From positions 42,964-106,963 of the IMG/VR virus record IMGVR_UViG_3300048691_000181: DNA of 64,000 nucleotides; one strand, given 5' to 3'. Position numbers and translations under genes: made by a program. Shown here piece after piece: positions 31,157 through 54,054 of the stretch. The notes under the pieces are model-generated. The model was given only the letters and a program-made list of their open reading frames with translations. It was not told the DNA's origin and searched no databases. The DNA is from a virus. Numbering within the stretch: the first letter of the stretch is position 1; each line of letters opens with the position of its first letter.

Positions 31157-31175
31157 ATGGCTTAGAATCAAAATA

Positions 31176-31207
31176 AACCACCTTGTACGTCATTATACAA
31201 GGTGGTT
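31176..31207 (+). terminator. 12-bp perfect hairpin between the two giant genes
   Basis: aaccaccttgta-cgtcatta-tacaaggtggtt. No strong U-tract on +, so it may be a processing or stability hairpin. Confidence 0.5.
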
Positions 31208-31229
31208 AACCTTAAAACTTTAATCTCCT

Positions 31230-37919: not shown

Positions 37920-38699
37920 TTAAAGAATATTATATTGTACCTCAATTGCTTTACGCTTTACGAGGTTGTCTTCACCAAAGCGAGTAGACTTTGGCTGCTT
38001 TACTATTTCCGTGAATTTCGTAAGTGCTTGTTCGTACTTATCCTTAAATGCACGTCTGTTCTTAGAGATAGGATGTTGAAATATTTCATTCTCTAAGTCT
38101 GGCTTAGAATCAAGTTCTAAGCCTTCCATCATATGTTCAGAGATGCCCATTCATCTGGCTAATGTTTCTGGAACAGCCTTGCAGGAAGCAGTTTGATTAG
38201 CTTCTCCTTTTCTTAATGCACAGAATTTCATCTCGTTTAAGCCAGCCTTAAACAGTGTAGAGATTTCAAAATTCTCGGGAAAGAATTGAACACCACTACT
38301 ATTCTTCGAGTTAACGTATTCTCGCGACACCTTAGAGTACTTTCCTTCAATAAAGGGTTCTATGATGGTCTTTATATATTTAGGTCTTACGTCACAGATA
38401 ATGAGTGTATGTGGCCCATTATAGTGTAAGACTTTCTTTATTTCAGAGAAGGTTAAGAAAGGCGTATTCTTTTCTATGTTTCTGAAATAAGAGAGAATAG
38501 ATTCGTGCCTTTCTTCTTGTTCTAAGAAGCCGTTAAAGCAATAGATAAGCTGCTTAGTTCAAGAATCTTTATCTGATTCTAAACCAATATAGACACCGTA
38601 AAGTCCATGATGATGGTAAAGAATGTCTGTGTCTTTACCAGAGAGAAAACCGAGATAATGAAGAGATTTGTTATTGTGCACTGATTCGAGTAGGTTTAT
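37920..38699 (-). CDS. Hypothetical ~259-aa protein with two in-frame TGA codons (readthrough gene or pseudogene)
   Basis: One frame from ATA 38697-38699 to TAA 37920, broken only by TGA at 38559-38561 (DKDS*TKQL) and 38151-38153 (TLAR*MGIS). The track shows only the last 76 aa. Confidence 0.65.
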
Positions 38700-38737
38700 T
38701 TAATTTTCTAATGCGGATTTGCTTTTGAATAAAGTAA

Positions 38738-38764
38738 CCTACTTCTGATGTTTCAGTAAGTAGG
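38738..38764 (-). terminator. Terminator-like hairpin
   Basis: cctactt-ctga-tgtt-tcag-t-aagtagg, right after the stop at 38768; U-rich tail on -. Confidence 0.6.
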
Positions 38765-38767
38765 CGC

Positions 38768-39181
38768 TTAATTGTTCGGATAGAGCGATGATACGTCATT
38801 GGTGCTGATTTCTATTGGAAGCATAAACTTCCTTTGTTTTTGAATTAATAGCCACATTTTAGCGGCTGCTTCTACGGGGGAATTTTCCATCGTACTTATG
38901 AGCGTACTACCTGCTATATCTGTAATACGATAATAATAGTATATACAGCTCTTATTATTACTTGCCTTTTGAAGAGTTAGCTCGTATCGAGAACCATAAG
39001 TAGTAATCGCTTCTGGTAGTAATGTCCATATCTCATCAAAAGAAGGACAAGCTATCGGATTAGTCTCCGATTCTTTATAGTAGCCATTAGCTTCTTCAAA
39101 GGCTTTTGAGCGATAATGACATTCTATATCCTGTGTGTATCCTGCTTCTTTGAGTAGGATACATGTTGCTAAACTAAGCAT
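38768..39181 (-). CDS. Hypothetical phage protein
   Basis: LLKEAGY...CPSFDEIWTLLP...ENSPVEAAAKM resembles a common small phage protein pattern; function unknown. Confidence 0.55.
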   Translation of the reverse strand: MLSLATCILLKEAGYTQDIECHYRSKAFEEANGYYKESETNPIACPSFDEIWTLLPEAITTYGSRYELTLQKASNNKSCIYYYYRITDIAGSTLISTMENSPVEAAAKMWLLIQKQRKFMLPIEISTNDVSSLYPNN

Positions 39182-39195
39182 TTTTTATTAGTGTA

Positions 39196-39220
39196 TCCCC
39201 CTTAGTTGTTACAGGGGGGA
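39196..39220. terminator. GC hairpin between genes
   Basis: tccccc-ttagttgttacag-ggggga flanked by AT tracts. Confidence 0.45.
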
Positions 39221-39238
39221 ATATTTTATTTTTTGTCA

Positions 39239-40378
39239 TTAAAGTTCTAAAGTATAATTTGAATCAAAAATCCATTTGGATATATTAAAGATATCAAATT
39301 TCCTGTGCCATCGATAAGCTTCTATGTATTCAAAGATGCCTCTAAAATGACGATGAGTGCCATTTATTTTCCCGTAGCCGCCATTTAATCCTATATCCAG
39401 AGTTTTCTCAGACACTACGAATTTAAGAGCGCTCTGACCAAAGAATTCCTTCTTAGGAGCTACTATGAACTTAAATGGCATTAGCGTATACCCTTCTCTA
39501 AACAAATCTTGAAAATAGCCATCTGCATTCTGGATTAGCCACACGTAGAAAGCAGCTTGACGAAAATATCCGTATTTATAGAAGGCGTCTTCAAAGTCCT
39601 GTGGATTAGAAGATGTTGTTTTTAGGTCAATTGGCTCTATAGTTCTATCAAAGTGATTGACTATTACCAAGTCCAATAGGCCTTTAAATTGCATAACCCC
39701 ATCTTTGGCTTTACCCATAAGGTCTATATTAGGGTCAGATATATCTTCTGGATATGTAACAGTATGGTAGATAGGCACTTGATATAAGACCTCACGTGTT
39801 TCATCATTCTTATCCACACCAAAATAAGACCGTATGTCTGGCAACTGTTCAAGAGCCCTAACAGCTACGTCTATTTCCTCGAAGTCATCATTAGAGAGTA
39901 TATCTTTACCTTGTGCTTGTTCTCGAGCACGGTAATAGCCGCATAACTCGCCTTTGGTCCAGAAATCTTTTATGATGGCATTTATGTTCTTCTTATAGCC
40001 TGAATAAGCGTAAGCACGAAGATAGAGACCAATATTTATATTAGCCTTAAATTCGTCTTCATCCCATACTTCTTCATTCAGCTCGAATAGGGGTAGATTG
40101 TCTATAAACTTTAACATAAGACCTGTGGGGCGATTGACGTTAAAGACGAAGAATTGAGAAGAAAAGTTTTCTTTATCGGTTAAGAGACAATCTACGGCCC
40201 TTCCTATTCTAAAATGACGTATGTCCTCAGTCTCTAACTGAGTATTCTCCTCCCAATAACGAATCCAAGCAGGATTCTCTACTTTCTTAAGTAGGGAGTT
40301 GTTGACAGCCTTAGAAGAGAAGTATTTCTTAATTCTACCTTCTTCTGTTATGGCTTTATATGTATTTAAGGATTCCAT
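39239..40378 (-). CDS. PD-(D/E)xK exonuclease (RecE/exonuclease VIII-like)
   Basis: GRAVDCLL...QVPI...FKGLLDLV...IDLKTT...YGYFRQAAFY. Confidence 0.85.
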   Translation of the reverse strand: MESLNTYKAITEEGRIKKYFSSKAVNNSLLKKVENPAWIRYWEENTQLETEDIRHFRIGRAVDCLLTDKENFSSQFFVFNVNRPTGLMLKFIDNLPLFELNEEVWDEDEFKANINIGLYLRAYAYSGYKKNINAIIKDFWTKGELCGYYRAREQAQGKDILSNDDFEEIDVAVRALEQLPDIRSYFGVDKNDETREVLYQVPIYHTVTYPEDISDPNIDLMGKAKDGVMQFKGLLDLVIVNHFDRTIEPIDLKTTSSNPQDFEDAFYKYGYFRQAAFYVWLIQNADGYFQDLFREGYTLMPFKFIVAPKKEFFGQSALKFVVSEKTLDIGLNGGYGKINGTHRHFRGIFEYIEAYRWHRKFDIFNISKWIFDSNYTLEL

Positions 40379-40402
40379 TATTAGGTTCTTAAATGTTATT
40401 TT

Positions 40403-40864
40403 CTAAAAATCGAATATGGCTCTATCTGCTCTTTTTAATCTTAACCAGTAAAAACAGCAAGATAATATCTCCATCCAAGATATAGAAGCAATCTTATATA
40501 AAGGTGGATGCTGGTTGTAGACGAATCCGTGATAGTTGTCATGTAGTGCTTGTGTCAAGCGCCTCGAAGTGTCAATCGTACTTTCAGAGCCAAAAGACTC
40601 AGTTAAGAAGAAAGCTTCTGTTAGCCATACTTTCTCATTTTCTGTCACAATATTGTGAAATTCGGAAGAATGGTAATTGCCTTTTATGTGATGCTTCTTA
40701 CAAAAAGCATAGGCATCGTTATTCGTAGAAACAGAAGTCCTTACTTTGCCTAAGAAGAAACACCAAACAAGTTTAAAGTCTTTTGGATGAATTCTGCAAA
40801 TAAGACAAAACATGAAACGCTTCATCCTTAAACTGAAAAATGTGTTATAGAACCAGTTAGCCAT
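40403..40864 (-). CDS. Hypothetical protein
   Basis: 153-aa ORF overlapping the upstream stop. Confidence 0.5.
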   Translation of the reverse strand: MANWFYNTFFSLRMKRFMFCLICRIHPKDFKLVWCFFLGKVRTSVSTNNDAYAFCKKHHIKGNYHSSEFHNIVTENEKVWLTEAFFLTESFGSESTIDTSRRLTQALHDNYHGFVYNQHPPLYKIASISWMEILSCCFYWLRLKRADRAIFDF

Positions 40865-41423
40865 CTCTTTTTCGTTTAAGATTACTTATTTTTTCTTCAT
40901 GAAGCTCTTTGAAAGAAGGTAATCCTTTTCTTGCTCTTTGCTGGTTGGGCTTATAGCAGAAGCTATTATTCAGCTTACACCATTTGACCCAATCAGAACC
41001 AATTTCTGAGAGTTCTGATTGTTCCGTCTTTCTTTGCCATTTCTGAATCATGTGCAAAGGCTGAACCCAAAAGGATGCTGAACCAACTGTATAAAGCTGT
41101 TCATTAAAGTTATCCACTGGTCGAGACCGCTCTTGATAATCTCGTTCAAGATAGCGAATTCCTTGAATTGTTGCTTCAGAAACTTCCCAAAGCTCACAAA
41201 CGATATGACAATCTCTCTTATAGGCGGCATAAGGATAATCCATCCCTTTGTGCATATAGAGTGTATAGTGCTTTAGTTTCGTCAATCCAATAAAGAAGCT
41301 ATCTCTATCTTCAGTAATGACATTATGTCGTTTGCAGTCCTTTCTCAAAGAACCATAGATTAAAATATGGTGTCGTTCTGCTAAGGCTTCGCTTACTTCC
41401 GCTATGCGGATGTTGTTTTTCAT
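40857..41423 (-). CDS. Gamma-glutamylcyclotransferase (AIG2/GGACT-like)
   Basis: ILIYGSLRK...HN...YP...CELWEVSEATIQGIRYLE..Y. Confidence 0.8.
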   Translation of the reverse strand: MKNNIRIAEVSEALAERHHILIYGSLRKDCKRHNVITEDRDSFFIGLTKLKHYTLYMHKGMDYPYAAYKRDCHIVCELWEVSEATIQGIRYLERDYQERSRPVDNFNEQLYTVGSASFWVQPLHMIQKWQRKTEQSELSEIGSDWVKWCKLNNSFCYKPNQQRARKGLPSFKELHEEKISNLKRKRDG

Positions 41424-41431
41424 TCTTTTTT

Positions 41432-41692
41432 TTAGTTTGTGAAATGTCTAATTATGGCAATGAGCACTGGCACAAAGACTGCTATAAATATAGCACCATG
41501 TATTAGTCCTCTAATATAGAGCCAATTCCTATGTCTGTCTGAAATGTGTAACTCAAGTGCATTGTCTTTTAAGAGCGATGCTACAAACTTGTCTATCTCA
41601 GTCTTCGATTTAGTCTTTTTCAATCCCTCATGCTTAGAGAGATATTCTTTTTTGTGTGCTCGAATTATTGCCGAAAGTGGTCTCAATTTCAT
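41432..41692 (-). CDS. Small protein with a C-terminal transmembrane helix
   Basis: GLIHGAIFIAVFVPVLIAII. Confidence 0.55.
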   Translation of the reverse strand: MKLRPLSAIIRAHKKEYLSKHEGLKKTKSKTEIDKFVASLLKDNALELHISDRHRNWLYIRGLIHGAIFIAVFVPVLIAIIRHFTN

Positions 41693-42047
41693 TCTTAAGT
41701 ATTGAGTCTGGCGATATTTTAAAATAGAGTCCTGAACGGAAAGAATCGAGCATAGAAAGTGTTACCGAATCAGCAAAGAAGATATTTCTAAGAGCGTCCC
41801 AATGAGACGAGATAAATTCAGGGTCTTCTTGCCATGGTGTTCCGTTACAATATTGTCTTTCTTCTCGAAGTAAAACTTCGAGAATTTCTTCTCTAATTGC
41901 TCGCTCTTTTCTGAAGTGACCTATTTGTTCAGCCTGTCTTAAGGAATAAGCTTGAAGCTTTTCCTCTATGTATTTCATATAAGTCCATAATGACATTATG
42001 CACAATAATGAGATAAGAATAAATCCTCTCATGTTTACACATTTCAT
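41634..42047 (-). CDS. Protein with an N-terminal transmembrane helix
   Basis: GFILISLLCIMSLWTYM; TAATG-coupled to the endonuclease gene. Confidence 0.55.
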   Translation of the reverse strand: MKCVNMRGFILISLLCIMSLWTYMKYIEEKLQAYSLRQAEQIGHFRKERAIREEILEVLLREERQYCNGTPWQEDPEFISSHWDALRNIFFADSVTLSMLDSFRSGLYFKISPDSILKNEIETTFGNNSSTQKRISL

Positions 42048-42484
42048 TAGTCTTCCATTTTTAAACGTTTTTTAATATCCTCAACAGTAAGCAATGTATC
42101 CTTTTGAGAATGAGATACGTAAGCTAAACAGTAAGGATGATGTTCTTTCAACCAGAACTTGAATAGCTTCCATTTAATCATAAATTCTGGTGTAGCCATG
42201 CCTTTTGTCTCTATGACCCATTTCCAGTCAGGTGAGACAAAGTCTGGCGTATATGTCATGTCTCTACATGAACATGTTTGCTTGATGATTCCTTTCTTTA
42301 CGTCAAAAGAACAAAATTGAAATCTCGGATGAAGCATAACGCAATGCTCCTCGTAATCGAAAGGAATATTCTGGTCTTGAAGCAATTTAGAACAATAAGC
42401 CTCAAGACCAGAACGAAAGCCATTACCTGAAACGGCTTTATATTTATGTAAAGGGATGCGTTTCCCTTGTTTTCTTTTTATCAT
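42047..42484 (-). CDS. T7 endonuclease I-like Holliday junction resolvase
   Basis: FRSGLE...YE...YTPDF...IETKG. Confidence 0.85.
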   Translation of the reverse strand: MIKRKQGKRIPLHKYKAVSGNGFRSGLEAYCSKLLQDQNIPFDYEEHCVMLHPRFQFCSFDVKKGIIKQTCSCRDMTYTPDFVSPDWKWVIETKGMATPEFMIKWKLFKFWLKEHHPYCLAYVSHSQKDTLLTVEDIKKRLKMED

Positions 42485-42487
42485 CTC

Positions 42488-42823
42488 TTAATGTGCCGTA
42501 GTAGCACCTCTTATAATGAAATTCATAGCATCTACTACATCTTGCCTTATTTGAAGATGTAGTAGCTTTATATTTAAAGGATGAAGATTTGAATGGTTAC
42601 CTCTTAAATAACACCATTCAAATGCATTCCTCGTATTCCCAGTTCCCCTATCAAGGCTTATCCATTTCTTCTGAAAAAAGGATTCTGCTTTTCCGAATTC
42701 GTTTAGAATACAAATAATAACGCCTTCATGAAGGGAATCTAAAAACTCTATTTGTTGTTCAAGTGTATCAAACTTGAACTTTTCGAGATGCTTGAAGTTA
42801 TAATTAAACTTATGCCTTGTCAT
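42488..42823 (-). CDS. Hypothetical protein
   Basis: 111-aa ORF overlapping the primase stop. Confidence 0.5.
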   Translation of the reverse strand: MTRHKFNYNFKHLEKFKFDTLEQQIEFLDSLHEGVIICILNEFGKAESFFQKKWISLDRGTGNTRNAFEWCYLRGNHSNLHPLNIKLLHLQIRQDVVDAMNFIIRGATTAH

Positions 42824-44075
42824 TTTCGGCTAATTTAATACGAGCTTCCAGAATAGTCTTCATCATCTCCCAGTCTTCACCATAGTTCTGGATAGTTGCT
42901 ACAACAAAGTCATCGATATCCTTGAAGCCGATATTGTTATCGTCCATAAATACTTTATAAACATTCGTATAGCCTAAGCTTCTGAAGTGGCGCTCTTGAC
43001 TATTTGCTGCCTTTCTTCCTGCGGCATCGTTGTCCATCCAGATATAGATTGGATAAATTGGAATTATTCCAAACTCTATATCGATTTGGGTCATATATTC
43101 TTTAGACAATTTTGTTCCTTCACCGCACTTGCCTCCTATGATAAAGTCTTTAAGGAGTTTCTTAATAAGAAGTGCATCTTTAAATCCCTTTGTCACAATG
43201 AAGCCTTTCCACGGATAGCGTGGTAGAATACTTGATTCCGTACTCTGCATATCCTTTATCCATTTCTTCAGACTGTCTTTATCACAATTCTTGATTAAGA
43301 TATCTGGTGATGCTATGTTCTTAAACTTGTGAGCTTTGGACTCACTATATGGACGATAGACCTGCATAGGCTTGTCTTTATCGTGATAAAGGAACAAAGG
43401 TTGCTCTACCGTATCTAAGAAAACTGTCTTTTTATCGGTAAAGACCTTATTTAAGGCTTTAACGTGACGGTAAATATCTTCTGCGCCAAGTCCTCGTTTA
43501 GCCCAGAAGTCCATGTGATGCTGTTCAAAATCAAGCATTTCGTCAAACTGAAGAACTGGCTTTTCGAGTGACCAGTCTTCTTTCTTTTGCGCCTCTAATA
43601 AGGCGGCTTTCTTTGCCTCGTATTCGGCTGTTACAATTCCGTCTAACATCTTTTTCTCTTTCTTTTTTTGCTCCTTGAGCCTCTTTAATAAATCCTTACT
43701 ACTTATGTCACTTTCTTCTAAATATGGCTTAGAATCAATGAATAGCCCCTTCTCGTTCATCTTGCCCATGCAATTACCAAGATTGGCTAATATTTCTACA
43801 ACTTCTACGAAGTCTTTCCCTTGAGACACTTCGTAGGCTCGGAAGATGTCGTAGGTCTCTCCTGTTGCAAAATCATGGAATAGCCAGATTCTCGAATCTG
43901 CTTTATCTTTGAAGAAATTACAATCTGCGTGTTTGTCTAAACGAAAAGGGTTCTTAAAGCGTCTTGTAGGATGAAAAAAGCCAAGTGCGCTGTTAAACGC
44001 ACTTGGAATATCGACATGGTCGTAAATAATAGACTTAATCTCTTTCCAGTCGATTGCTTCTTTATTATGTATCAT
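42810..44075 (-). CDS. DNA primase (DnaG-like TOPRIM, crAss type)
   Basis: NPFRLDKHADC...FHDFATG; IVTKGFKD; WMDNDAAGRKAA; KDIDD. Confidence 0.85.
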   Translation of the reverse strand: MIHNKEAIDWKEIKSIIYDHVDIPSAFNSALGFFHPTRRFKNPFRLDKHADCNFFKDKADSRIWLFHDFATGETYDIFRAYEVSQGKDFVEVVEILANLGNCMGKMNEKGLFIDSKPYLEESDISSKDLLKRLKEQKKKEKKMLDGIVTAEYEAKKAALLEAQKKEDWSLEKPVLQFDEMLDFEQHHMDFWAKRGLGAEDIYRHVKALNKVFTDKKTVFLDTVEQPLFLYHDKDKPMQVYRPYSESKAHKFKNIASPDILIKNCDKDSLKKWIKDMQSTESSILPRYPWKGFIVTKGFKDALLIKKLLKDFIIGGKCGEGTKLSKEYMTQIDIEFGIIPIYPIYIWMDNDAAGRKAANSQERHFRSLGYTNVYKVFMDDNNIGFKDIDDFVVATIQNYGEDWEMMKTILEARIKLAENDKA

Positions 44076-44118
44076 TTCTATTTTTTTACGACCATTATGT
44101 TATGGAAGATGGTTTATT

Positions 44119-44802
44119 TTAGAACGGAAGTTCTCCGTCTTCTTCCGTTAAAGGAGCATCAACCCTATGTCCTTCTGGTTTAGAAGCTGAAGGAGCTAAG
44201 TCTGACTTAGAGCTTCCCGTGTAACCAGAAGTGTCGCGAGGCTTCATTCTTCTATGTAGATTTTTGTCAAGTTCCCATTGCGTGAACTTAATCTTAGATT
44301 CAACACCTTCTATGTGTTTCTCAATTTGAGGGCAAGTAGGTGTCCCTGCATTCTCGCTAAGTTTGGTCCATTCGTCTTTATTGTCCATAATCACCTTGAT
44401 ACTTACGAAGCGATTAGGCATTTTACGTTGCTTGTCTATATAGGAGAACATAGTCGAGATATTTTTCTCGTAGTCGGCAGTTAGATATTTGTCGATTTCT
44501 CCTTGTGTACCAATTGCATCACAAATCTCCATTAGCTTCAAGACTAACTTATCTTCAGCTTGTTTCTTAGTTAAGGTTACTTTTCCGTTCTGAACAAAGT
44601 CTTTCTTATTGATAAAGAGAGCTAAGTCAGCGTATTCGTCTGAAGTAGTAGACTCAAAGGTAAGCTTAAAGAAAGGAGTTTCAGGCTTAGTATCTACCTT
44701 TTCTGCTTTAGAAATAGTAAAGCGTGTGAAAATTCCTGGATTAGAGATTTTGATTTTCTCAATTTGTGAAGCACGTAGGCTTTCTGCGTATATATTAGAC
44801 AT
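44119..44802 (-). CDS. Single-stranded DNA-binding protein-like
   Basis: Beta-rich N-terminus and acidic tail EEDGELPF; lies between the ATPase and primase genes. Confidence 0.6.
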   Translation of the reverse strand: MSNIYAESLRASQIEKIKISNPGIFTRFTISKAEKVDTKPETPFFKLTFESTTSDEYADLALFINKKDFVQNGKVTLTKKQAEDKLVLKLMEICDAIGTQGEIDKYLTADYEKNISTMFSYIDKQRKMPNRFVSIKVIMDNKDEWTKLSENAGTPTCPQIEKHIEGVESKIKFTQWELDKNLHRRMKPRDTSGYTGSSKSDLAPSASKPEGHRVDAPLTEEDGELPF

Positions 44803-44883
44803 GTGTATATGTATGTTTTATCCCTATGTTGGGATTATTTTAATTTTCTATATATAGATAGTTAATGTGTTTATTTGTTTTAG

Positions 44884-44970
44884 TTAAAGAGTTCCAAATG
44901 GATGAAGTTCTAATTTATTCTTTAATTCGATTATAGATTCATCTGAAAATTTTCCAATTTTAACTCCCAT
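44884..44970 (-). CDS. 28-aa small ORF (MGVKIGKFSDESIIELKNKLELHPFGTL)
   Basis: ATG overlaps the ATPase stop (TAATG). Confidence 0.35.
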   Translation of the reverse strand: MGVKIGKFSDESIIELKNKLELHPFGTL

Positions 44971-45692
44971 TATGTAGTAGTTGAAGTTGTTTCAGGAATT
45001 TCTAAATCATATTTACGAATTAATCGAATCACTTCTCCTAAATCGTTTGACATAAACTTTGGAAGTACTCCATAAACAGACCTTGCTTCACAAAAACCTA
45101 AATTTTGCGTACGAAGATTAAATCGTTTTTCTTCTTCTGTTTCATCGATATCAAGAAACGTATATAGATTATAATTAGTAAATTTAGATAATCTACTTTT
45201 AGTTGCTTGTTTGCCAGGAAATAAAGTACGAAGATGCGTTTCTTTTAATCCTGTTTGAGTATTGACGCTATCATATTCCTCAGCATGGCATAGGAATATG
45301 ATAATTAAATTATCATCTCCTGCTCGTTCTTGCGAATTAGCAAAACTATATAAGTCGTAAGCGTCATCGGCTAAGTTTTTCCAAACGTCAAATCCTGGCT
45401 TTCTTCGTTCGTCTTGAAGATAATCAGTTAGTATTGTATTTAAAGTATCTAACACAATTATCTTTATGTGTGGGCGACTTTTGACAATTGCCGAAATATA
45501 ACTTTTTATTTTTCCTATATCACTTTCCCGTACGTAGTTTTTGTTTGTGGCATTATATTGCGAACGCCATCCAGAGTAGCTCATGCCTTTCTGGTCCGTA
45601 TCGATAATAAATGTTTCTTTCGGGTCTAATGTTTTTAATGAAAATGACTTACCTGTAGCTGGAAGTCCCGTGACTTGTAATAAAAGTGCCAT
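44970..45692 (-). CDS. AAA_24/Sak4-like P-loop ATPase
   Basis: GLPATGKS, IIDTD, IVLDT, IFLCH. Confidence 0.85.
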   Translation of the reverse strand: MALLLQVTGLPATGKSFSLKTLDPKETFIIDTDQKGMSYSGWRSQYNATNKNYVRESDIGKIKSYISAIVKSRPHIKIIVLDTLNTILTDYLQDERRKPGFDVWKNLADDAYDLYSFANSQERAGDDNLIIIFLCHAEEYDSVNTQTGLKETHLRTLFPGKQATKSRLSKFTNYNLYTFLDIDETEEEKRFNLRTQNLGFCEARSVYGVLPKFMSNDLGEVIRLIRKYDLEIPETTSTTT

Positions 45693-45730
45693 ATATGTTC
45701 ATGGTGTCTTGCCTATATATGTTATAGGTC

Positions 45731-46057
45731 TTATATTTTATTAACGTTCTTTGCGATTCAGCCAGCAACAGTTTCGTTATACAGCGAGAAATCTATAATT
45801 GCTCCTGCCGCATAACTATTCTTCTTTGGCTCAACCTTTTTACTTTCTTTTATCTCTTCTTTCTTAGGCTCTACTTTAGGAGTTGGTACAACTACTTTAA
45901 CTTCCACAGGAGCCTGTTTTGCTGCCTTCTCAGCCATTATTTGAAGGTTATAGCGCAATTCTACTATATTGTAGAAATATTGCATTAGAAACAAAATAAG
46001 AAAGATATAAGCAAGATTGTGAAAACTTGCTTTATATCCTTCAATAATCTCAATCAT
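45731..46057 (-). CDS. Membrane-anchored protein; TGA at 45758-45760 possibly read through to TAA at 45731
   Basis: TM segment LAYIFLILFLMQYFY. Readthrough gives ...NETVAG[W]IAKNVNKI. Confidence 0.55.
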
Positions 46058-46097
46058 CAAGGATGTAATTGAAACTGCTTTCTTGGGTTCTCTTATG

Positions 46098-46105
46098 CAA
46101 AGATA
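46098..46105 (-). promoter_or_regulatory. Bacteroidota-type -7 promoter box (TATCTTTG)
   Basis: caaagata on +; intergenic, ~40 nt upstream of the ATG at 46057, the same spacing as the other two boxes. Confidence 0.6.
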
Positions 46106-46174
46106 AGGATTTTCTCATTGAAAGTGGGTTGTTAGGTAATTTTCTTTCTAATTTCTTTCTTGCAAAGTGCTCTC

Positions 46175-47185
46175 TTAGATGAGCGTGTTTGTAGGCTGAT
46201 AAGCGTCTCTTATAGTAGAGTTCTTAAAATCAGCAATCATGTGAAGTACGGGACATTCGCCAAACCTATTCTTCAACAGGTGGAAGTATATCATAGGAAG
46301 ACCTGTTCTTAGGTCATATACAGGGTAGTTTAGGTCTCCGTACTCTTTGATTCCCCGTACTCTACTTGGATTCATACTAAACAGAACTATGTCCGAATTA
46401 GAAAAGATGGCAGACGAGCCAAATATGTCTGCTTCGGTCGGGTAGTGTAAGGCTTTATTTGACACCCTTGCTGAAGAGAAAATGTCTCTATTTGTTTGGC
46501 TTAAACAAAGAAAGATAATACTCAACCCCATATCTTCAAAATCCTTCTTCATGTCTACTAATTGCTGGTAGAGATTGTCTACAATACGCTTAGCGTCTTC
46601 ATCATTCTTTCCCTTCGTTAGAGTGATATAATCTATCGTGACAATGAGCTTTTTCTTTCTTCCTTCATCAGTAAGATTTCCTTCATTATCCCAAAGTTCA
46701 TCTAACTCACGGTCAATAACAAATTGACATATTTCTGTCTTTATTTGGGCTACAGATTGTGCTTTGTCTATGTTAAATACAGGTTTATCTCCAAGCGTCT
46801 TTATAGCTTCCTCGACAAGTGCTGCTTCCTCCTCAGTCATAACGTACCCTCTCGCAGATTGAAGACTCTTTAATCCAATGCCTGTCTTCTTTGATAGATG
46901 TCGTAGTATTTGCATACGCACAATCATATCGAACTCGAAAGATAAGCATTCGACCAAAGGGTCTTGTTCCATAATGAAGTACTTTATTTGCTCCATAATC
47001 GTAGATTTCCCTGAAGAAGGCGTACCTACAATAGTCATTAATGTCCACCACGGGATGCCGTCCAGTAACGCATCGTTAAGACCTCTGTACGGTGTTTCTG
47101 CTGAAGGAAGTAGCCCGTCTTTACGAGCAGTCATGTATTCTTTTGTTTTCCGTATATCTACGGATATGTGTTTATATGCACCCAC
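46175..47185 (-). CDS. dnaB: DnaB-like replicative helicase (C-terminal domain only)
   Basis: GTPSSGKS, FEFDM, TIDY, LSQTNR, S..I...SD, LKNRFG; GTG start. Confidence 0.88.
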   Translation of the reverse strand: MGAYKHISVDIRKTKEYMTARKDGLLPSAETPYRGLNDALLDGIPWWTLMTIVGTPSSGKSTIMEQIKYFIMEQDPLVECLSFEFDMIVRMQILRHLSKKTGIGLKSLQSARGYVMTEEEAALVEEAIKTLGDKPVFNIDKAQSVAQIKTEICQFVIDRELDELWDNEGNLTDEGRKKKLIVTIDYITLTKGKNDEDAKRIVDNLYQQLVDMKKDFEDMGLSIIFLCLSQTNRDIFSSARVSNKALHYPTEADIFGSSAIFSNSDIVLFSMNPSRVRGIKEYGDLNYPVYDLRTGLPMIYFHLLKNRFGECPVLHMIADFKNSTIRDAYQPTNTLI

Positions 47186-47223
47186 TTGCGTCTATGTATT
47201 ATTTATGGGATTATTTTACTTGG

Positions 47224-47448
47224 CTAAGAAATATAGCTTTCCATTTTTTCTATGGATATATAGATGTCTGCTACTTCTTTCTCAGCCAGTTCTTTGAGCT
47301 CTTTGAGAAAGAACTCAAAGAGCTCAAAGAACTCGATTAAGACATTTTTTTAAGATGTAGTCTTGAAAGATATATCTATAAAATGAGTATATCCATCATT
47401 CACCCAATGCCTATAATTCTTCTTCGTAAGTGTCGCCTCGTTCGACAC
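47224..47448 (-). pseudogene. Small acidic protein frame broken by one TAA
   Basis: VSNEATLTKKNYRHWVNDGYTHFIDISFKTTS*KNVLIEFFELFEFFLKELKELAEKEVADIYISIEKMESYIS; TAA at 47350-47352. Confidence 0.4.
47289..47332. repeat. 19-bp perfect inverted repeat with a 6-nt loop
   Basis: gttctttgagctctttgag-aaagaa-ctcaaagagctcaaagaac. Confidence 0.95.
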
Positions 47449-47608
47449 TTACTTCAATTATTTTCCAGTCAATGACGCCATCGTCATCTGCATCGTTGAG
47501 TGTATCTTTTTCATACTCAACGACTTCAGCAATTACCTTTTCTAATTCTTGTTTATCTTTACAAGAATATACCGCAGTCTTAGAGACTGTTACTTGTTTC
47601 CTAAACAT
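47411..47608 (-). CDS. Small acidic hypothetical protein
   Basis: 65 aa, in an overlapping chain of small ORFs. Confidence 0.55.
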   Translation of the reverse strand: MFRKQVTVSKTAVYSCKDKQELEKVIAEVVEYEKDTLNDADDDGVIDWKIIEVSVERGDTYEEEL

Positions 47609-47784
47609 TTTTTGATTCTTGTTTTTCTCTTAAAAATAATAGCACGACCAAATTCTTTTGATTGTTGCTTCTCGTCTAACTCTTTAGCGAGTTGACGCAT
47701 GGCTTCAATACATTCATCTACAATGAGCATAGATTCACCCTTTACTTCAAAGATGCTGGAGATTAATATTTTTTTTGATTGCAT
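47590..47784 (-). CDS. Small hypothetical protein
   Basis: 64 aa, TAATG-coupled. Confidence 0.55.
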   Translation of the reverse strand: MQSKKILISSIFEVKGESMLIVDECIEAMRQLAKELDEKQQSKEFGRAIIFKRKTRIKKCLGNK

Positions 47785-48050
47785 TATTCTTCCAGTTCTA
47801 TTTCTTCGACCTCTCCTTCGGTACAGGTCATTTGTCCTAACCAGAGATAAGGATGTTCTTTTTCGTAAATATCGACGATGCCATCAACTTGGCCTTCGAT
47901 TTCTTTCTCAAACTTCTCGATGATGTCTGGGTATTCTTGACCCTCAAATACCTCTTCGCTCAACTCTAACTCATAAGTTAGAGTTGCTTTAAATTTTCTT
48001 TTATACTTTAGCTCCATTTTAGATTGGTGGAGATAATCCCTTATCCCCAT
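47784..48050 (-). CDS. Small acidic hypothetical protein
   Basis: 88 aa, Glu-rich. Confidence 0.55.
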   Translation of the reverse strand: MGIRDYLHQSKMELKYKRKFKATLTYELELSEEVFEGQEYPDIIEKFEKEIEGQVDGIVDIYEKEHPYLWLGQMTCTEGEVEEIELEE

Positions 48051-49281
48051 TTAGCGAATAAAAGCACTTTTCGGCTTGAAGAAGTGCTGCTTGAAGGCAT
48101 GCTATCTGCCCTTCCCAATTAGTAGAGAATTCTTTAACATGGTTTTCATCGAACATAAATAAAGATTGTTCGATGAATGTATGTGAGAGAGACTTCTGGC
48201 AATTTTCTTTACCAAAACACTCTATATGTAATCTTCTATCTTTTATTATTTCTTCTGAAACAATAAAGATAGAGAAGGTTAAGCACTTTACTTCTCTCTC
48301 TGGTGGAGAATAGATAACGTAACCTATATTTGTATACCGCCATAACTGGAAATAGTATTCTCCAAATTCTTCACAAACGAAGTGGTCATTTACTTCTTCT
48401 GGTTTAGAATTTCTTATGTCTTTCTCGAGGTTCTTATAGTTCTCAGGGAAAGGAAGGTCACTGTGATACTCTGGCACTTCCTTGTCTTCCTTCTCACTAT
48501 CTCCCATACAGCAATTAGGACATTCTTCTCGAGGAAAAGAGTCTTTTATATATCCCGTTAGAGAAAGGTCGTAAGGAACCTCTTCTAAGCAGGAATCACA
48601 TGTCTTTATCTGATAGTAAGGCTGGTCTTCGTGACCATTTACCATTAGACAACTATCGCATGTATGAGCGCTAATAGTAGCCTTGTCTGTCCGATTGAGA
48701 TGCTCTTCAACAGTGACCATATAATCTTCACCACAGAGAGCACAATAGTCTATCTGAATCTGAAACATATCTTGCTTTAGATACTCGTCGTGCTCTTCAA
48801 ATCTGTCATCTATGTCTTCCATCTCCATTCGAGGATGATAGTCTTCTGACTCGAACTTGAGTTCACTAATGTCGTTCAAGCATTTATCGCAAACAAGCAC
48901 AGTTGCTTGAATAGCATCAAAGTTCTTTTGAGGAATCTGAAACGGGAATAAGAGCTTTCTCCCTGACATTTGATGTTGAAACAAAGCTGTTTCAGATTCC
49001 TCTGAGAATTCGATTCATTGGCGCATAGAGTCGGATAAAGGGTCGAATTTTATCCCTCTCTTATCGCATATATAGCACGTACAGCTCCGCTCAAATATAT
49101 CATCTTTACCAAAGCGGGGTAGCTCTCCATTGCGTACAAAAGAATAAACGTTCTTGTGTGCAATTTCTTCTAATCCTGCTTTTTCAAGATACTTTTTATA
49201 AGTTGAGCTGTACTTGTTTTTTATAAAGTTATTAGCGTCTGTATCCTTATTTTGGATAACGCTACAAATAGAACAACCCAC
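48019..49281 (-). CDS. Multi-zinc-finger protein (420 aa) joined across an in-frame TGA
   Basis: Track ORFs 49015-49281 and 48019-48984 are in the same frame, separated only by TGA 49015-49017 (DSMRQ*IEFSEESETALFQH). CxxC pairs occur in both halves. Confidence 0.7.
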
Positions 49282-49307
49282 ATGTTTAAGGTTCTTGTAC
49301 GTTTATT

Positions 49308-50486
49308 TTAGTTCTTGGGCAACTCGATACCCAATACGCTTGGGTCAGAACAGGTCGACCTGAAAATTTTATTAACCTGTTCGACGAGTCCTTTTCGCTC
49401 ACCTAAATTCGGATTCTTTTCAGCTTCGTCCAGCATCTTATTGGTTGAATTTAGCATCGTAATAAATGGCATACCACCCGTTGGTCCCATGGCTGTTTGC
49501 TTTTTCCTAATGACTTCTTCAAACTCATCGACTTGACTATCTGTGAGTTTAGCCGCATTCTTTAACAAGCGACGAATGATTTTATCTTCCTTCTCAGCCG
49601 CCTTTTTTTCTTCGGGCAATCGATTGTCGTCTGTTGGCGGTGTAACGGGCTTAGCTGGGTCGGCAGGTTTTGGATTCCCTTTTTCTTCCTCTTTTTTTGC
49701 TTTTCGGTCTGCCTTATCTTTGTCGATAAGGCTCTGATTCAGCTTGTCGATAATGGTAGATTCTCCCATAACCACGGCTAAAATAGCAATCATCACACCT
49801 TCTAATATAGAAGTGATAATGTGAACCTTGAACAAGAAGAACGAGTTGTTCATATTGAAGCCCAAGTAATTTGAAACTTCAACATTAGGGTCAAACCTTC
49901 CCCGATATGGAGCTGCTATTTCAGCAGGTGATTTCCAGAACATGAAAAATCTTTCAACCGCATAGTTAAACTCAGGTACCTGTTTAAAGCCCTTCGCAAT
50001 TAACGCACAGTTGCCCCATGCGATATAGAAAGTAGAAAAGACAAGGACGACTGACATGATTAGCAAGAGAAAGAATGCTGCTGGCTTAGCTGACCTGATG
50101 ACATCGCCTTTTTCGTTTCTTAAAGGACCAAAGAACTGAAGTCCTTGTACCGTCATCATCAGGAAAAACGGCGTTACACACGCACATAAAAATCCGACAA
50201 CAGAGATAACGTTGTGTTGCAAAAATCTTGCAATCATCGAGATAGGCTGTTCATCGGCAGGATGAACGAGCGTAGCAATATTTGCCTCCGTGATAAAGGA
50301 GGCAATATTCATAATAATAATGAGCATTAGAAAATTGCCCATGACGAAATGGGCAAAATAATGCTCCATTGTCGTTTTTTTTACTTTGGCTCGCCAAACG
50401 AGTCCTACCATGAATATGGCTAACATGATTACCGATGAATACATCAGTAAATCAGAAGTGAACTTGTCTCCGTCAACTGGGTGCAT
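49308..50486 (-). CDS. Polytopic membrane protein with a charged soluble C-terminus
   Basis: About five long hydrophobic segments, then a K/E/P-rich linker. Confidence 0.7.
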   Translation of the reverse strand: MHPVDGDKFTSDLLMYSSVIMLAIFMVGLVWRAKVKKTTMEHYFAHFVMGNFLMLIIIMNIASFITEANIATLVHPADEQPISMIARFLQHNVISVVGFLCACVTPFFLMMTVQGLQFFGPLRNEKGDVIRSAKPAAFFLLLIMSVVLVFSTFYIAWGNCALIAKGFKQVPEFNYAVERFFMFWKSPAEIAAPYRGRFDPNVEVSNYLGFNMNNSFFLFKVHIITSILEGVMIAILAVVMGESTIIDKLNQSLIDKDKADRKAKKEEEKGNPKPADPAKPVTPPTDDNRLPEEKKAAEKEDKIIRRLLKNAAKLTDSQVDEFEEVIRKKQTAMGPTGGMPFITMLNSTNKMLDEAEKNPNLGERKGLVEQVNKIFRSTCSDPSVLGIELPKN

Positions 50487-50522
50487 AAAACATTTTTTTT
50501 ATTCCGTTAAAGTATACTCTTC

Positions 50523-51125
50523 TTAACCAGCATAGTCTGGTCTATCCCAAGAAGACTCTAATTCGGTCATGCCGTCCTTAGAGTCTTCTTCTTTTATGTC
50601 AAACAAGGAATCCAAATAGCTATGCCATTGTTCCATGTTTTCTGTATGTCCTTTTATTCTACCAATTGTGTTTTGGACATTCTCAGTCTGAATAGTAGAA
50701 AGTTCATCTATCCGATGAAGGACGTATGGGCAGTCCTTCAACTTTTTACATATATGTTCACTATATCTCTTTTCCTGATAGCCTCCATCGCCAGCTAAGT
50801 CAAACTGAGCATCTTCTATGACCAGTTCGTCTTCGTTAGCGTATTGAAATAATGAAGACATGAAGCTCTTAAAAGGAATCCATTTTTCGCTATATTGTAC
50901 CAGTTCCATCTTCTCTTTAAGGAAAGTGGCATAAAAACAATGAGATGGATTTGAGTTATCGAGGTAAAGGAAGATAGAGTATTCTATCTTGTCAACCGTC
51001 AATGGCATCAACTCCTTTCTAAGAAAGTAATACCATTTAAAATACGTCTTTCCTAATGCCATTATCCTTGGTTTTACTACTTTAAATTCACATGCACATG
51101 AACTCCCGTTGCCCACGGAACCCAT
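50523..51125 (-). CDS. Hypothetical protein
   Basis: Real start probably the ATG near 51062 (MALGK). Confidence 0.55.
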   Translation of the reverse strand: MGSVGNGSSCACEFKVVKPRIMALGKTYFKWYYFLRKELMPLTVDKIEYSIFLYLDNSNPSHCFYATFLKEKMELVQYSEKWIPFKSFMSSLFQYANEDELVIEDAQFDLAGDGGYQEKRYSEHICKKLKDCPYVLHRIDELSTIQTENVQNTIGRIKGHTENMEQWHSYLDSLFDIKEEDSKDGMTELESSWDRPDYAG

Positions 51126-51823
51126 CTCCAGTGTTTTTCTTCATCAAGGGAAAGCATTCCTTTTGAAGACTGTTTATAGTCTTCGATAAAGAAGACTAAA
51201 TTGTATTTATTAAGCCATCCCTCCCCTGATTCAGACATCAACCAAGATGTTAATGTTTTAGAGTAATTGAGGTCAATGGCTTTGCCACACCTATGCCCCT
51301 TGCCGCCCCAATTACGATACGTGGAAGTCACAATTATGTCGGGTGCAGAGTAATCTGCTAAATGTGCGAGCGCGTCACGTATCTCGTACGTGAGTTTATC
51401 TCTGCCCTGATTTGCCTTTTTCTGGTAAGTAACTCGGCTCGTTGCCTTTTGTAATCCCTCCAGCTCTTGAATGTCTGAATGGGAAATACTATCGCTATTG
51501 CTAATTTTCTTAACCAACGCAATCTTGGTAATAGCAAGTGTAACATTGGTATGCTTGATACCACGAATATGATGGCTATGACTGCCATCCAAAAAATAGT
51601 CATATTTTGTTTTTCTTAAGTTTTTGATTGCAAGCGTAGATTCTTCTCGAGGACACTCTAAGAGGTCTTTTATCGAAACTACGCTTACAATCGAATTAAA
51701 TGATGTTTTAACGCATATTTGAGTTTTCTTTTTCTCGAAACTCATAAGTGGGAGGATAGCCAAAATCCAGATTAATTTCTTAATTTGAATAAGCCACCTT
51801 CCCCCTTTATTTATATGTACCAT
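51077..51823 (-). CDS. Peptidase M15/Hedgehog-DD-peptidase-fold zinc peptidase with an N-terminal hydrophobic signal
   Basis: VTSTYR...GHRCGKAIDL...HVHV; KKLIWILAILPLMSF. Confidence 0.7.
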   Translation of the reverse strand: MVHINKGGRWLIQIKKLIWILAILPLMSFEKKKTQICVKTSFNSIVSVVSIKDLLECPREESTLAIKNLRKTKYDYFLDGSHSHHIRGIKHTNVTLAITKIALVKKISNSDSISHSDIQELEGLQKATSRVTYQKKANQGRDKLTYEIRDALAHLADYSAPDIIVTSTYRNWGGKGHRCGKAIDLNYSKTLTSWLMSESGEGWLNKYNLVFFIEDYKQSSKGMLSLDEEKHWRWVPWATGVHVHVNLK

Positions 51824-51842
51824 CTTTAAAAGATTAGTTATT

Positions 51843-52361
51843 TTAAACTGAAGCTACAGTATTCTGAACGTATAATTCGTAATCTGCCTTTAATTGGATA
51901 TACGATTTAGTATTCAAATCAGGATTCATGGGCAGTACGAGCTTTTGAGCTTTACTCACCATGAACACTTCTGCGCTTTGCAACTTCGACAAAGTTACAC
52001 CATTTTTGTCTAAATGGTTTTTTGGCACATACTTCTCAACATAAACATCGGGATTCTTATCTTTTTTTCCCTTGAAAGAAGGGTTGAAATAGCCTGATGT
52101 TGAAGAGCTGAACCATGTCGTATTTGGATTGAAATATACAGGTGCACCATTCTTATTTTGGAATGTGTGCATTAGCCCTGATTCAGTATAGCTAACATTG
52201 TATATTTGCTTGGTTCTTTTATCCCTTAAACAGACAAGATTATTTTCTACACCAAGCAGTCATTGAAGGAAAGGGTCTATGACCCTTTGTGTTGAGGATA
52301 CAAGTTTGGTCGCAAAAGTTACAGTATTGGTTTTGCCATTTGTGGCGTCAGTGGTATACAT
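51843..52361 (-). CDS. Hypothetical 172-aa protein with an in-frame TGA
   Basis: ATG 52359-52361 after aaatttcaaatta; frame broken only by TGA 52260-52262 (IDPFLQ*LLGVENN), then continues into track ORF 51843-52172. Confidence 0.65.
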
Positions 52362-52425: not shown

Positions 52426-54054
52426 TTATGTTAAATCATCGTAGCAAGAATCGCAAACCTTCTTGCCTTTATAGAGATTCTTCTGTTCTTCGTCAAAAGA
52501 ATCGCCACATTCATCACAAGTGAATGTTTCAGGCTCGTCCTCTACTTCATTATTTTCCTCGAAGCAGGAATTGCACCAACGGGGTGTTCCATCCGAGTTT
52601 TCGATAGCCTCTTCAATCGTTTCATCGCAATCATTCATCCTGCGTTCAATCTCAAGGTTGAAAAATTCCAGTCCTCCCTTGCAATCGCAGTCACAACACT
52701 CGAAGTTGTATACAACTTCGGGAAATAAATCTTGATTAGGTACTTCAATGGGAGTAGCTTCTACTCGACTTTCCTCTGGCATGCTAAAAACACTCTCTTC
52801 AGCTTTCACTGGTGTCTCAAACATAGAGTAGTCGAAAGCCAGAATCTTCTCTATGTCTAAGGGCTCAATCGGAATAGGTGTAGTATCCATCTTGAGTTTC
52901 TTAATTGTTGGAGCTGCCGCTTTCATCTCTAAGATGAGATTCCAGAGCTCACTATAAACCGTATGTCTTTTTTCGTACACCGTGGTCAAGAAGATAGAAA
53001 GTGCTTTATCATAGCACATCTTTCTGGTCAAGCCAATATTCCATGGTGTCTTGGCCATTTCAATACATGCATACATATATTGATTTTGTGCGACATACCA
53101 GTCTTCGTCGCAAATCTTTAATGTTCCATCAGGAACTCCTACCATCCGATACTCAACCACGTTATTATTTCCTTTAACCGTGCTATTGAACATTCCCTTT
53201 AATCGGGTATCTCCTGAACCAGCCGCGTGAAGAAAAGCGGTATTAGGAACTGCTCCTTGTTCTTCGAGCATGTTAAATGCTCGATTCTTCATGTTCATGA
53301 ACTGAATATCTTGCATCTCCTTAGAGAGGTTGCCTTGAGCGTCACCAATACACCAAAGTGCATTAGCATAATCCTCGCCTAAACCTTTTCTGTTTGAGAT
53401 TTCAAGAACAAAATCACGAGCAAACCAGATAAAATTCCAGAATCGAGTAATGTTTATTTTCTGGTCAACTGGAGTTGAACCCCACAACTCGATGGAAGTA
53501 TTTAAGTGGGTAGAAGCGTCTGGACACCCGTACTTAAAACCAAAGAGTTTTCTCCACCAGAGAATACGAGCAATCTCTACTTTGAACAGAGGCATTGCTT
53601 TTAACGAAAAAGGGGCTAAGACAATCTCGATACCACCTAAGTCGTTATTTACGGTTTTATCGAAGTGTGGTTCTGCTACGATTGCGGTTGACAGGTTTGG
53701 ATAAACTGCAACCCTTAAGCACTCGAGAATCATATTTCGAGTTTGATGCGGGCCCGTATTCAACGGAACCGCGAAGTTCTTTTTGCCCATTTGGAATCGA
53801 GAAAACTTCGTAGATTCGGTCATTACTTCGTTTTCTGAAAGCAGACTGATAATTTCCATGAAACGTGATACAGGAAATTCTTCTGCGCATTCCATCTCGA
53901 TTCCACAACCTAAGCCGTGAGAATCTTCTTGAATATACTCATCTTCGGATGAGTAGTGAAATTCAACCTCTTTGTTGATGCCATTGTCGCTCTTGACACG
54001 GCGCTTAATCACAATTGACGGTAGCGGTTTTAACGCCTTTAAGAACTTACTCAT
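52426..54054 (-). CDS. Amidoligase (COOH-NH2 ligase, glutamine synthetase-like fold) with an acidic Cys-rich tail
   Basis: GCGIEME, HFDKTV, GIEIVLAP, ASTHLN, VEYRM; C-terminal CCDCDC, CNSC, CDEC, CDSC. Confidence 0.72.
   Translation of the reverse strand: MSKFLKALKPLPSIVIKRRVKSDNGINKEVEFHYSSEDEYIQEDSHGLGCGIEMECAEEFPVSRFMEIISLLSENEVMTESTKFSRFQMGKKNFAVPLNTGPHQTRNMILECLRVAVYPNLSTAIVAEPHFDKTVNNDLGGIEIVLAPFSLKAMPLFKVEIARILWWRKLFGFKYGCPDASTHLNTSIELWGSTPVDQKINITRFWNFIWFARDFVLEISNRKGLGEDYANALWCIGDAQGNLSKEMQDIQFMNMKNRAFNMLEEQGAVPNTAFLHAAGSGDTRLKGMFNSTVKGNNNVVEYRMVGVPDGTLKICDEDWYVAQNQYMYACIEMAKTPWNIGLTRKMCYDKALSIFLTTVYEKRHTVYSELWNLILEMKAAAPTIKKLKMDTTPIPIEPLDIEKILAFDYSMFETPVKAEESVFSMPEESRVEATPIEVPNQDLFPEVVYNFECCDCDCKGGLEFFNLEIERRMNDCDETIEEAIENSDGTPRWCNSCFEENNEVEDEPETFTCDECGDSFDEEQKNLYKGKKVCDSCYDDLT

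Follow-up and report, generated by a model that had tools for sequence, protein, structure and literature searches.

The replication genes of a complete crAss-like phage genome (106,963 bp, ~107 kb, AT-rich) carry a few in-frame TGA codons whose reading as tryptophan is supported by alignment with related phages; the genes upstream on the same strand still have TGA as a stop, and the virion genes on the other strand contain no TGA at all. The use of TGA is arranged by expression block, and we consider it probable that UGA-to-Trp suppression sets in later than the early genes, remains incomplete and has RF2 as a competitor. Block-wise TGA recoding is already known in crAss-like phages, and what is new here is a recoded replication block with a low density of recoded codons.

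The window, i.e., the whole stretch of 64,000 nucleotides that was analyzed, is a part of this genome. Its membership of the Crassvirales is indicated by a match to the muzzle protein (PF25731, crAss_MUZ; E=6e-50), by PHROG matches to TerL, portal and major head protein, and by a giant 6327-aa ORF, as expected for a virion RNAP-like protein. The following features are needed below (window coordinates):

1..35684, + strand, window part of the late block, with the muzzle protein, cargo proteins and the 6327-aa giant protein; zero TGA, sense or stop
37920..38681, − strand, 253-aa frame with TGAs at 38559-38561 (codon 41) and 38151-38153 (codon 177); under code 11 only stubs of 59 and 76 aa
45731..46060, − strand, 109-aa frame with a TGA at 45758-45760 (codon 101), then 8 codons and TAA
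48019..49281, − strand, 420-aa Cys-rich protein with a TGA at 49015-49017 (codon 89)
51843..52361, − strand, uncharacterized 172-aa small phage family protein with a TGA at 52260-52262 (codon 34); it opens the TGA-sense sub-block
54051..54053, − strand, true TGA stop that overlaps the start of the next gene as ATGA; marker of the upstream sub-block, in which TGA keeps its stop function

Three blocks can be distinguished. The full 64-kb late (virion) block uses only TAA and TAG as stops, TGA being the stop of none of its 39 genes versus 10/56 on the opposite strand (p=0.005). The early sub-block of the minus strand (~24 kb; window 54-64 kb and contig 1-14.4 kb) follows the standard code and contains eight genes ended by TGA, a kind of stop restricted to this upstream part; besides 54051, the window has such stops at 54992 and 59787. 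In the middle 18 kb (window 35.7-54 kb), where the replication and accessory genes lie, no TGA is clearly a stop and three to five TGAs are used as sense codons. This is a very low density, 3-5 sites per 107 kb, and TGA represents at most ~3% of the early-strand Trp codons (3-5 sense TGAs against 160 TGGs). The first-pass annotation had confined the readthrough to the early/middle strand, with a polarity reversed with respect to known crAss-like recoding. The confinement to that strand was borne out, also in two relatives with complete late blocks, but only its downstream, replication half is TGA-sense, whereas the upstream half keeps TGA as stop, and thus a three-block layout replaces the simple reversal. 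The same annotation described the plus-strand block as free of in-frame TGA and ended everywhere by TAA, which is true for the eight large ORFs of the window; the whole late block also uses TAG.

All five in-frame TGAs that had been proposed (38559, 38151, 49015, 52260, and 45758) were recovered with the same flanking residues. They bridge same-frame ORFs, code 4 joining 37920-38681, 48019-49281, 51843-52361, and 45731-46060, and two interrupted genes contain TGG as well (W314 and W388/389 in the 420-aa protein, W83 in the 172-aa protein). Three of them, i.e., 49015, 52260, and 38559, are solid sense sites. The other two are compatible with either stop or sense: 38151 is ambiguous because an ATG follows immediately, and 45758, in a TGA-A context, is the sole candidate TGA stop within the replication sub-block. 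Same-frame joining was dropped as sole evidence, since ~9% of the TAA/TAG stops likewise stay open for at least 60 codons. The backup stops behind TGA were also uninformative, the distance to the next stop being equal after TAA/TAG (medians 2-7 codons). The first ATG after TAA/TAG appears within 0-23 codons, while the first start codon comes 76 codons after TGA 38559, behind which all 76 open codons are coding-like, and 29 codons after TGA 52260. Moreover, in all segments scored, the coding signal was found in frame on both sides of every TGA. With code-11 gene calling, three to four genes of this phage come out truncated or split, and a TGA signal of this sparsity would escape predictors of the whole-genome code.

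All the solid sites of this genome lie in genes without assigned function, two of which have 0 or 1 homolog. No homolog of the 253-aa protein was found in any set searched, the seven fetched relatives included, and the 109-aa protein had none in these seven relatives. The sole full-length homolog of the 420-aa protein, P0006 (422 aa, 40% identity), runs unbroken across codon 89 and has W there, within a conserved segment; the predicted structure of the 420-aa protein has a pLDDT of 32, too low to be of use. The 172-aa protein has 49 homologs, and the P0008 alignment spans TGA 52260. In the predicted structure, codon 34 falls inside a helix (30-38; pLDDT ~90), and starting at M64, as under code 11, would drop the invariant residues R46, S57, G62, and L63. 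The homolog residues in the column of TGA 52260 are variable (Q, A, K, E) and do not include W, but members of this family in other phages have TGA at conserved W columns. The gene call in the closest relative begins 9 codons past the equivalent of TGA 52260, which suggests that a stop codon is also present at that site. The 172-aa model gave no match in the PDB with Foldseek, and neither the four TGA genes nor most of their neighbors matched Pfam or PHROGs. In the search for close relatives, megablast and tblastn gave no hit in GenBank phages, IMG/VR and JGI no locus for the 253-, 420-, or 163-aa proteins, and a scan for close relatives with the MCP only short, distant contigs.

These genes could instead be dispensable accessory genes with recent nonsense mutations, which would make them pseudogenes or divide each of them between two products. 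Every affected gene lacks an assigned function, 38151 and 45758 resemble ordinary stops, TGG becomes TGA by a single transition, and the 52260 column is non-W in the homologs. Nevertheless, we regard this explanation as improbable. The interruptions are all TGA, when TGA is expected to be only ~24% of random nonsense mutations (p ~0.004-0.015), and no frameshift or TAA/TAG accompanies them. The coding signature and the conservation are kept on both sides, the closest relative appears to have a stop at the 52260-equivalent site, and a similar block-restricted pattern affects the essential replication genes of the relatives, some TGA columns being shared between genomes.

The relatives are seven distant phages (G1-G7; this genome is G0) with a similar layout and proteins 30-50% identical. 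Homology-supported in-frame TGAs were found in four of the seven, and the 54 such codons of G0-G4 stand opposite mostly W, F, or Y. The three-part pattern (early TGA stop, replication TGA sense, virion TGA-free) is present in G0, G2, and G4, where the terminal TGAs of the early strand lie upstream and the sense TGAs downstream, and the block-restricted sense TGAs of the relatives include essential replication genes. Sense TGAs are confined to the early strand in these three genomes, the comparison of sense TGA with TGG in early versus late genes giving p=0.04 in G0, p=0.016 in G2, p=5e-5 in G4, and p=4e-8 in the pooled data. TGA stops are absent from the late blocks of these three phages (0/108) in contrast with 23/88 in the relatives with the standard code, G5-G7 (p=2e-9), which have TGA stops in every block, those of the replication block being found in G5 and G6. 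In G1, sense TGA also occurs in late genes, and thus virion exclusion is not a group-wide rule. Trees of TerL, portal, exonuclease, and helicase did not resolve the relationships of the relatives, and no convincing gene family limited to the recoding genomes was found.

The choice of tryptophan made in the first-pass annotation, in preference to Gly or Sec, agrees with W at the TGA column of the sole homolog of the 420-aa protein and with the residues opposite the in-frame TGAs of four related phages, i.e., W 64, F 34, Y 20, TGA 16, and at most 12 of each of the others. Thus, in-frame TGA stands against homolog Trp in conserved genes, the 52260 column being variable, and these alignments support UGA as tryptophan. 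The 16 TGA-TGA pairings between genomes occur despite a protein identity of 30-50%. It is hardly credible that the TGAs are assembly or sequencing errors, or that they encode Sec or Gly: the same fragment protein is recorded from two contigs, errors would have to create one codon repeatedly on half of one strand, and the aligned residues are aromatic, neither Gly nor Cys (Cys 1/204; W, F, and Y are aligned where selenocysteine would predict Cys or Sec).

Sense TGAs also have a biased context and position. The following base is A in 36 cases, G in 14, C in 5, and T in 1, while after TGG the counts are A 185, G 194, C 108, and T 126 (p=1e-6); T is also rarer after sense TGAs than after terminal ones (p=6e-4). 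Of the five TGAs in this genome, four have A as the next base, and 52260 has C. Sense TGAs are displaced toward the 5' ends of genes (median relative position 0.27 vs. 0.60 for TGG, p=6e-6), and among 33 genes, 22 have TGA as their first Trp codon, against an expectation of 15 (p=0.003), as do 4/4 in this genome. The idea that readthrough may gate or dose full-length proteins fits both biases.

The probable incomplete suppression can be set out as follows. Judging by the order of the genes and by what has been published on crAss001, the standard-code block, with its eight upstream TGA stops, is probably expressed first, when UGA would terminate translation. Suppression of UGA would turn on after these early genes and then persist, partial and in competition with RF2; the three to five sense TGAs of the replication block are read as Trp. 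Such a competition would account for the weak-termination context, for the 5' location, and for the exclusion from the high-output virion genes. A virion block without any TGA reads the same with or without UGA suppression.

The complete genome of 106,963 bp contains no tRNA(UCA) recognizable by ARAGORN or Rfam, thus giving a negative answer to the whole-genome scan for tRNA-Trp(UCA) suggested earlier, and no release factor or TrpRS. None of these three was found in any of the genomes, the relatives having been checked for tRNA(UCA) too. In the absence of an encoded tRNA(UCA), the decoder would be the host tRNA-Trp, as a near-cognate, or an unrecognized RNA or protein; an early product of the phage may favor near-cognate reading by weakening RF2.

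It seems unlikely to us that UGA is suppressed efficiently by a dedicated decoder that escapes the standard tools, either a non-canonical tRNA-like RNA of the phage or a host opal suppressor. Five strong tRNA-like genes do lie at contig 9.5-12.6 kb, in the early sub-block and upstream of the TGA-sense block, the non-canonical RNAs of this sub-block having anticodon loops of 8 or 6 nt, and most TGA-recoded crAss-like genomes in the literature also lack a detectable Sup-tRNA. However, UCA is at a plausible anticodon position in none of the tRNA-like loops, and G2 (95% complete) has sense TGAs without any tRNA-like gene. Furthermore, an efficient decoder leaves the avoidance of T, the 5' bias, and the virion exclusion unexplained. 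Two candidates were discarded. A UCA loop hidden in the CUUCAAUA stretch of the T-arm RNA (contig 9252) was supported by neither RNAfold nor the tRNA covariance model, and quadruplet decoding of TGAA by an 8-nt-loop tRNA was rejected since the frames go on in the zero frame past TGA.

A host that natively reads TGA as Trp, as in code 4, would require no switch, and suppressor tRNAs are found in neither the phage nor its relatives. We judge it very improbable, because TGA is at most ~3% of the early-strand Trp codons despite an AT-rich genome, eight upstream genes end in TGA, some with ATGA overlaps, the virion genes avoid TGA wholly, and the context bias implies release-factor competition. A more daring proposal, possible but rather doubtful, is a code switch free of suppressor tRNA. 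In this case, an early phage product, either a protein or an odd tRNA-like RNA, would inactivate RF2, outcompete it or reprogram the host tRNA-Trp, making UGA mean Trp for the replication genes; the small conserved gene 51843-52361 would mark where the switch takes place in all recoding relatives, and the virion genes would be TGA-free, near-cognate decoding being too slow or leaky for bulk synthesis.

Block-wise TGA-to-Trp (code 4) recoding has been published for crAss-like phages (Yutin et al. 2021, PMC7886860; Borges et al., bioRxiv 10.1101/2021.08.26.457843; Mgcod, bioRxiv 10.1101/2022.06.29.495998), and the same sources place the recoded codons chiefly among the late genes, for structure and lysis, the replication genes being standard or dual-coded. 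A suppressor tRNA is present in 35-40% according to a review (PMC10136315), and the crAss-like recoding literature gives Sup-TCA in only 3/17 complete code-11/4 genomes; a phage tRNA with anticodon UCA thus marks a minority of known cases, to which this phage does not belong. It shares with the published phages the order, TGA opposite Trp, one standard-code block, the abandonment of TGA as stop in the other blocks, and the frequent absence of a suppressor tRNA. In contrast, the concentration in late structural and lysis genes is not observed, since in this genome, G2, and G4 the replication block carries all the sense TGAs and the virion block none, and the sites are very sparse (3-5 in the 107 kb).

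A natural, leaky reading of UGA by tRNA-Trp is known from the A1 protein of Q-beta and, as low-level UGA decoding, from Bacillus subtilis. Cases of the Q-beta A1 type involve a single terminal UGA that yields a C-terminal extension, the following base matters, and the output is partial. The lack of a dedicated tRNA and Trp at UGA are common to both, and so would be a dependence on the next base and a partial output if suppression is incomplete here; the biases in the following base and toward the 5' end are indirect indications of such low-efficiency, near-cognate decoding by tRNA-Trp. Unlike in A1, the TGAs are within genes, near the 5' end, and the full-length protein depends on them.

In published models, the recoding of stop codons keeps the late and lysis genes of phages locked until a phage suppressor tRNA opens them. 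The phage described here and its relatives do not fit this model: the replication block is recoded, the virion block is merely made suppression-safe, and there is no tRNA(UCA). This offers a system for asking how most TGA-recoded crAss-like phages devoid of suppressor tRNA decode UGA, and for viewing an early, ambiguous stage of codon reassignment. An in-frame TGA in an early-region gene is shared with the "Agate" phages, in which a TGA-preferring intron homing endonuclease lies inside an early gene and a delay of the product has been proposed (Borges et al., bioRxiv 10.1101/2021.08.26.457843), but there a single selfish gene is involved, together with heavily recoded late genes and a suppressor tRNA.

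The first-pass annotation had placed five in-frame TGAs on the minus strand (38559, 38151, 49015, 52260 and 45758), and on re-reading all positions and flanking residues matched. It had also proposed that the interrupted frames join and, in fact, calling with code 4, in which TGA is read as Trp, gives single continuous frames at all four genes (window coordinates):

37920-38681, minus strand: 253-aa frame, TGA at codons 41 and 177
48019-49281, minus strand: 420-aa frame, TGA at codon 89
51843-52361, minus strand: 172-aa frame, TGA at codon 34
45731-46060, minus strand: 109-aa frame, TGA at codon 101

The segments on either side of every TGA, start-less gaps included, score as in-frame coding in a frame-specific codon model trained on the other minus-strand genes. 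Same-frame continuation is not rare in this phage (G0), since about 9% of its TAA/TAG stops stay open in the same frame for at least 60 codons. These control stops have an ATG 0-23 codons downstream; the first start codon lies 76 codons past TGA 38559 and 29 codons past TGA 52260. Recent nonsense mutations are a less likely rival; if single-base changes created stops at random in these genes, TGA would make up only 24% of them. TGA 38151 is directly followed by an ATG and reading through TGA 45758 adds 8 codons, and thus, taken alone, these two sites fit either a stop or a sense codon. G0 has only three firm sense sites, all in genes without assigned function. The helicase gene is followed by a 225-nt gap (47186-47410, minus strand) that could be non-coding or house a very small recoded gene; its sole long frame has 63 codons, four of them TGA.

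The 420-aa protein has one relative among 5.8 billion proteins, P0006 (422 aa, 40% identity), which is continuous across TGA 49015 and carries in that column, within a well conserved segment, the W anticipated by the first-pass annotation. Homology searches found no homolog of the 253-aa protein. The family of the 172-aa protein is uncharacterised and counts 49 representatives. The protein aligns with the homolog P0008 (163 aa, 45% identity) across TGA 52260, and the column is variable. Codon 34 is located in a helix with a pLDDT of about 90 (AlphaFold model, overall pLDDT 85; its fold has no match in the PDB), and a code-11 start at M64 loses four invariant residues. In the closest relatives, P0007 and P0056, the called start lies 9 codons past the position equivalent to TGA 52260, which hints at a stop there too. 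A scan with this family found the gene on seven IMG/VR records and three metagenome contigs. In 5 of 9 distinct loci TGA stands precisely at the W columns that the family conserves, and at every one of them. Judged from these loci, the small-protein family gene (homologs at L008 and L011-L014) is a hot spot for TGA. Sequencing errors, an improbable rival, would have to give one and the same codon time after time, within one half of one strand.

G0 was compared with seven IMG/VR records (G1-G7; six of 58-110 kb and one 35-kb fragment) that are 30-40% identical and whose tree gave no firm branching order. Code-4 ORFs, each TGA written as X, were compared all-against-all by BLASTP, which yielded 54 in-frame TGAs with aligned sequence on both sides (G0 1, G1 26, G2 2, G3 13, G4 12, G5-G7 0). 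In G4, TGA occurs in the genes for the exonuclease, the helicase and the Sak4-like protein. The residues aligned to the in-frame TGAs are W (64), F (34), Y (20), TGA (16) and others (at most 12 each). From these W/F/Y-dominated columns we conclude, in line with the earlier Trp assignment, that TGA encodes Trp in this phage group.

Judged from its gene content, G0 belongs to the crAss-like phages and has a muzzle protein (PF25731, E=6e-50) and crAss-type TerL, portal and major head protein. The 106,963-bp contig, of which the window covers bases 42964-106963, is rated 100% complete; its ends (1-149 and 106815-106963) form an exact 149-bp direct terminal repeat, even though the record lists it as linear and lacking end repeats. 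The late virion block occupies the + strand (contig 14.7-78.6 kb), with a GroEL-like chaperonin gene at its head (contig 18862-20568, +; PHROG 5725, E=7e-72) and a giant single-frame ORF of 6327 aa (window 12173-31156, +). The giant gene is present in the records covering the late block (5264-6419 aa), TGA being absent in all but that of G1; G2 and G4 especially mirror the G0 layout. The minus strand encodes the helicase, primase, exonuclease and Sak4-like protein, with a set of tRNA-like RNAs upstream, a gamma-glutamyl cyclotransferase-like gene (window 40857-41423; PF06094) amid the replication genes, and a Pistol ribozyme match (contig 13193-13254; 54 bits, gathering score 34.5) in or beside a 141-aa ORF.

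The confinement to the early strand noted in the first pass was borne out: G0 has every sense TGA on that strand and keeps its late block free of them (Fisher p=0.04). TGA is missing from the window's eight large + strand ORFs, which all terminate in TAA. The same restriction was observed in G2 (p=0.016) and G4 (p=5e-5; pooled p=4e-8). Moreover, none of the 108 late genes of these three genomes uses a TGA stop, versus 23 of 88 in the standard-code G5-G7 (p=2e-9). The early strand of G0 has eight clear TGA stops, all in its upstream, first-transcribed part:

54051, 54992 and 59787 (window), minus strand: TGA stops, upstream sub-block
821, 6284, 9638, 11245 and 12958 (contig), minus strand: TGA stops, upstream sub-block

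No TGA other than the five queried ones occurs in the downstream replication part. TGAs 38151 and 45758 would therefore more likely be sense than stop, since both lie where clear TGA stops are absent. This upstream-stop, downstream-sense split is also found in G2 and G4; the replication blocks of G5 and G6 use TGA stops. The TGA-sense zone opens with the small-protein family gene in G0, G1, G3 and G4 (4 of 5 recoding genomes, found by BLAST), and in G2 the first sense TGAs sit in a family locus from the scan. A host with code 4, an improbable rival reading, would read these codons as Trp, and would also have to accommodate the eight upstream stops.

The recoding described in crAss-like phages affects mostly late genes, replication genes being standard or dual-coded (PMC7886860; 10.1101/2021.08.26.457843; 10.1101/2022.06.29.495998). 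In contrast, G0, G2 and G4 recode the replication block only, and a full-text literature search found no description of this arrangement with a TGA-free virion block.

Sense TGAs are followed by A in 36 cases, G in 14, C in 5 and T in 1, whereas the TGG codons of those gene sets have A after them 185 times, G 194, C 108 and T 126 (p=1e-6). T follows 9 of 35 terminal TGAs in the same genomes (p=6e-4 versus sense TGA). At the five G0 sites the following base is A in four and C in one. Sense TGAs also lie toward the 5' end (median relative position 0.27 versus 0.60 for TGG, p=6e-6), and TGA is the first Trp codon in 22 of 33 genes (15 expected, p=0.003), including 4 of 4 in G0. The context dependence implies competition with a release factor. 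That the replication and virion blocks have lost their TGA stops implies that suppression is active during their translation. The absence of sense TGAs from virion genes and the 5' bias fit incomplete or slow decoding, which would burden the synthesis of bulk proteins but be tolerable where output is low. On these grounds, we favour an incomplete suppression that would begin after the early sub-block and be carried out by the host tRNA-Trp or an unrecognised factor.

Neither a tRNA(UCA) nor a release factor or TrpRS is encoded in the complete G0 genome; tRNA(UCA) is missing from the relatives too, and G2 lacks any tRNA. An efficient suppressor that escaped detection is a less likely rival: a suppressor tRNA was detected in a minority of TGA-recoded crAss-like phages (PMC10136315), and such a decoder would still have to account for the 5' bias and the TGA-free virion genes. 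Outside the window and upstream of the TGA-sense genes, the sub-block in which TGA is a stop holds five tRNA-like genes (contig 9532-12595, minus strand; 20-65 bits against tRNA or tmRNA models). Their anticodon loops have 8 nt (CUUGAAAG, UUAGGUUU, UUAUAAAA, CAUAAAAA) or 6 nt (UUUAGU), and UCA is absent from all five. G1, the one relative that also recodes late genes, has a single tRNA (G001:C1:8416-8490; L018:1501-1575) with a Trp-like D arm and the anticodon loop UUACAAU (anticodon ACA), which could pair with UGA if A34 were deaminated to inosine. A tRNA-like gene of G4 (L022:1501-1579, minus strand; G004:C1:78424-78502; 34.5 bits) combines a D region of 4 nt and a long variable arm with the loop CUUCUAA, a single base away from an opal-suppressor loop.
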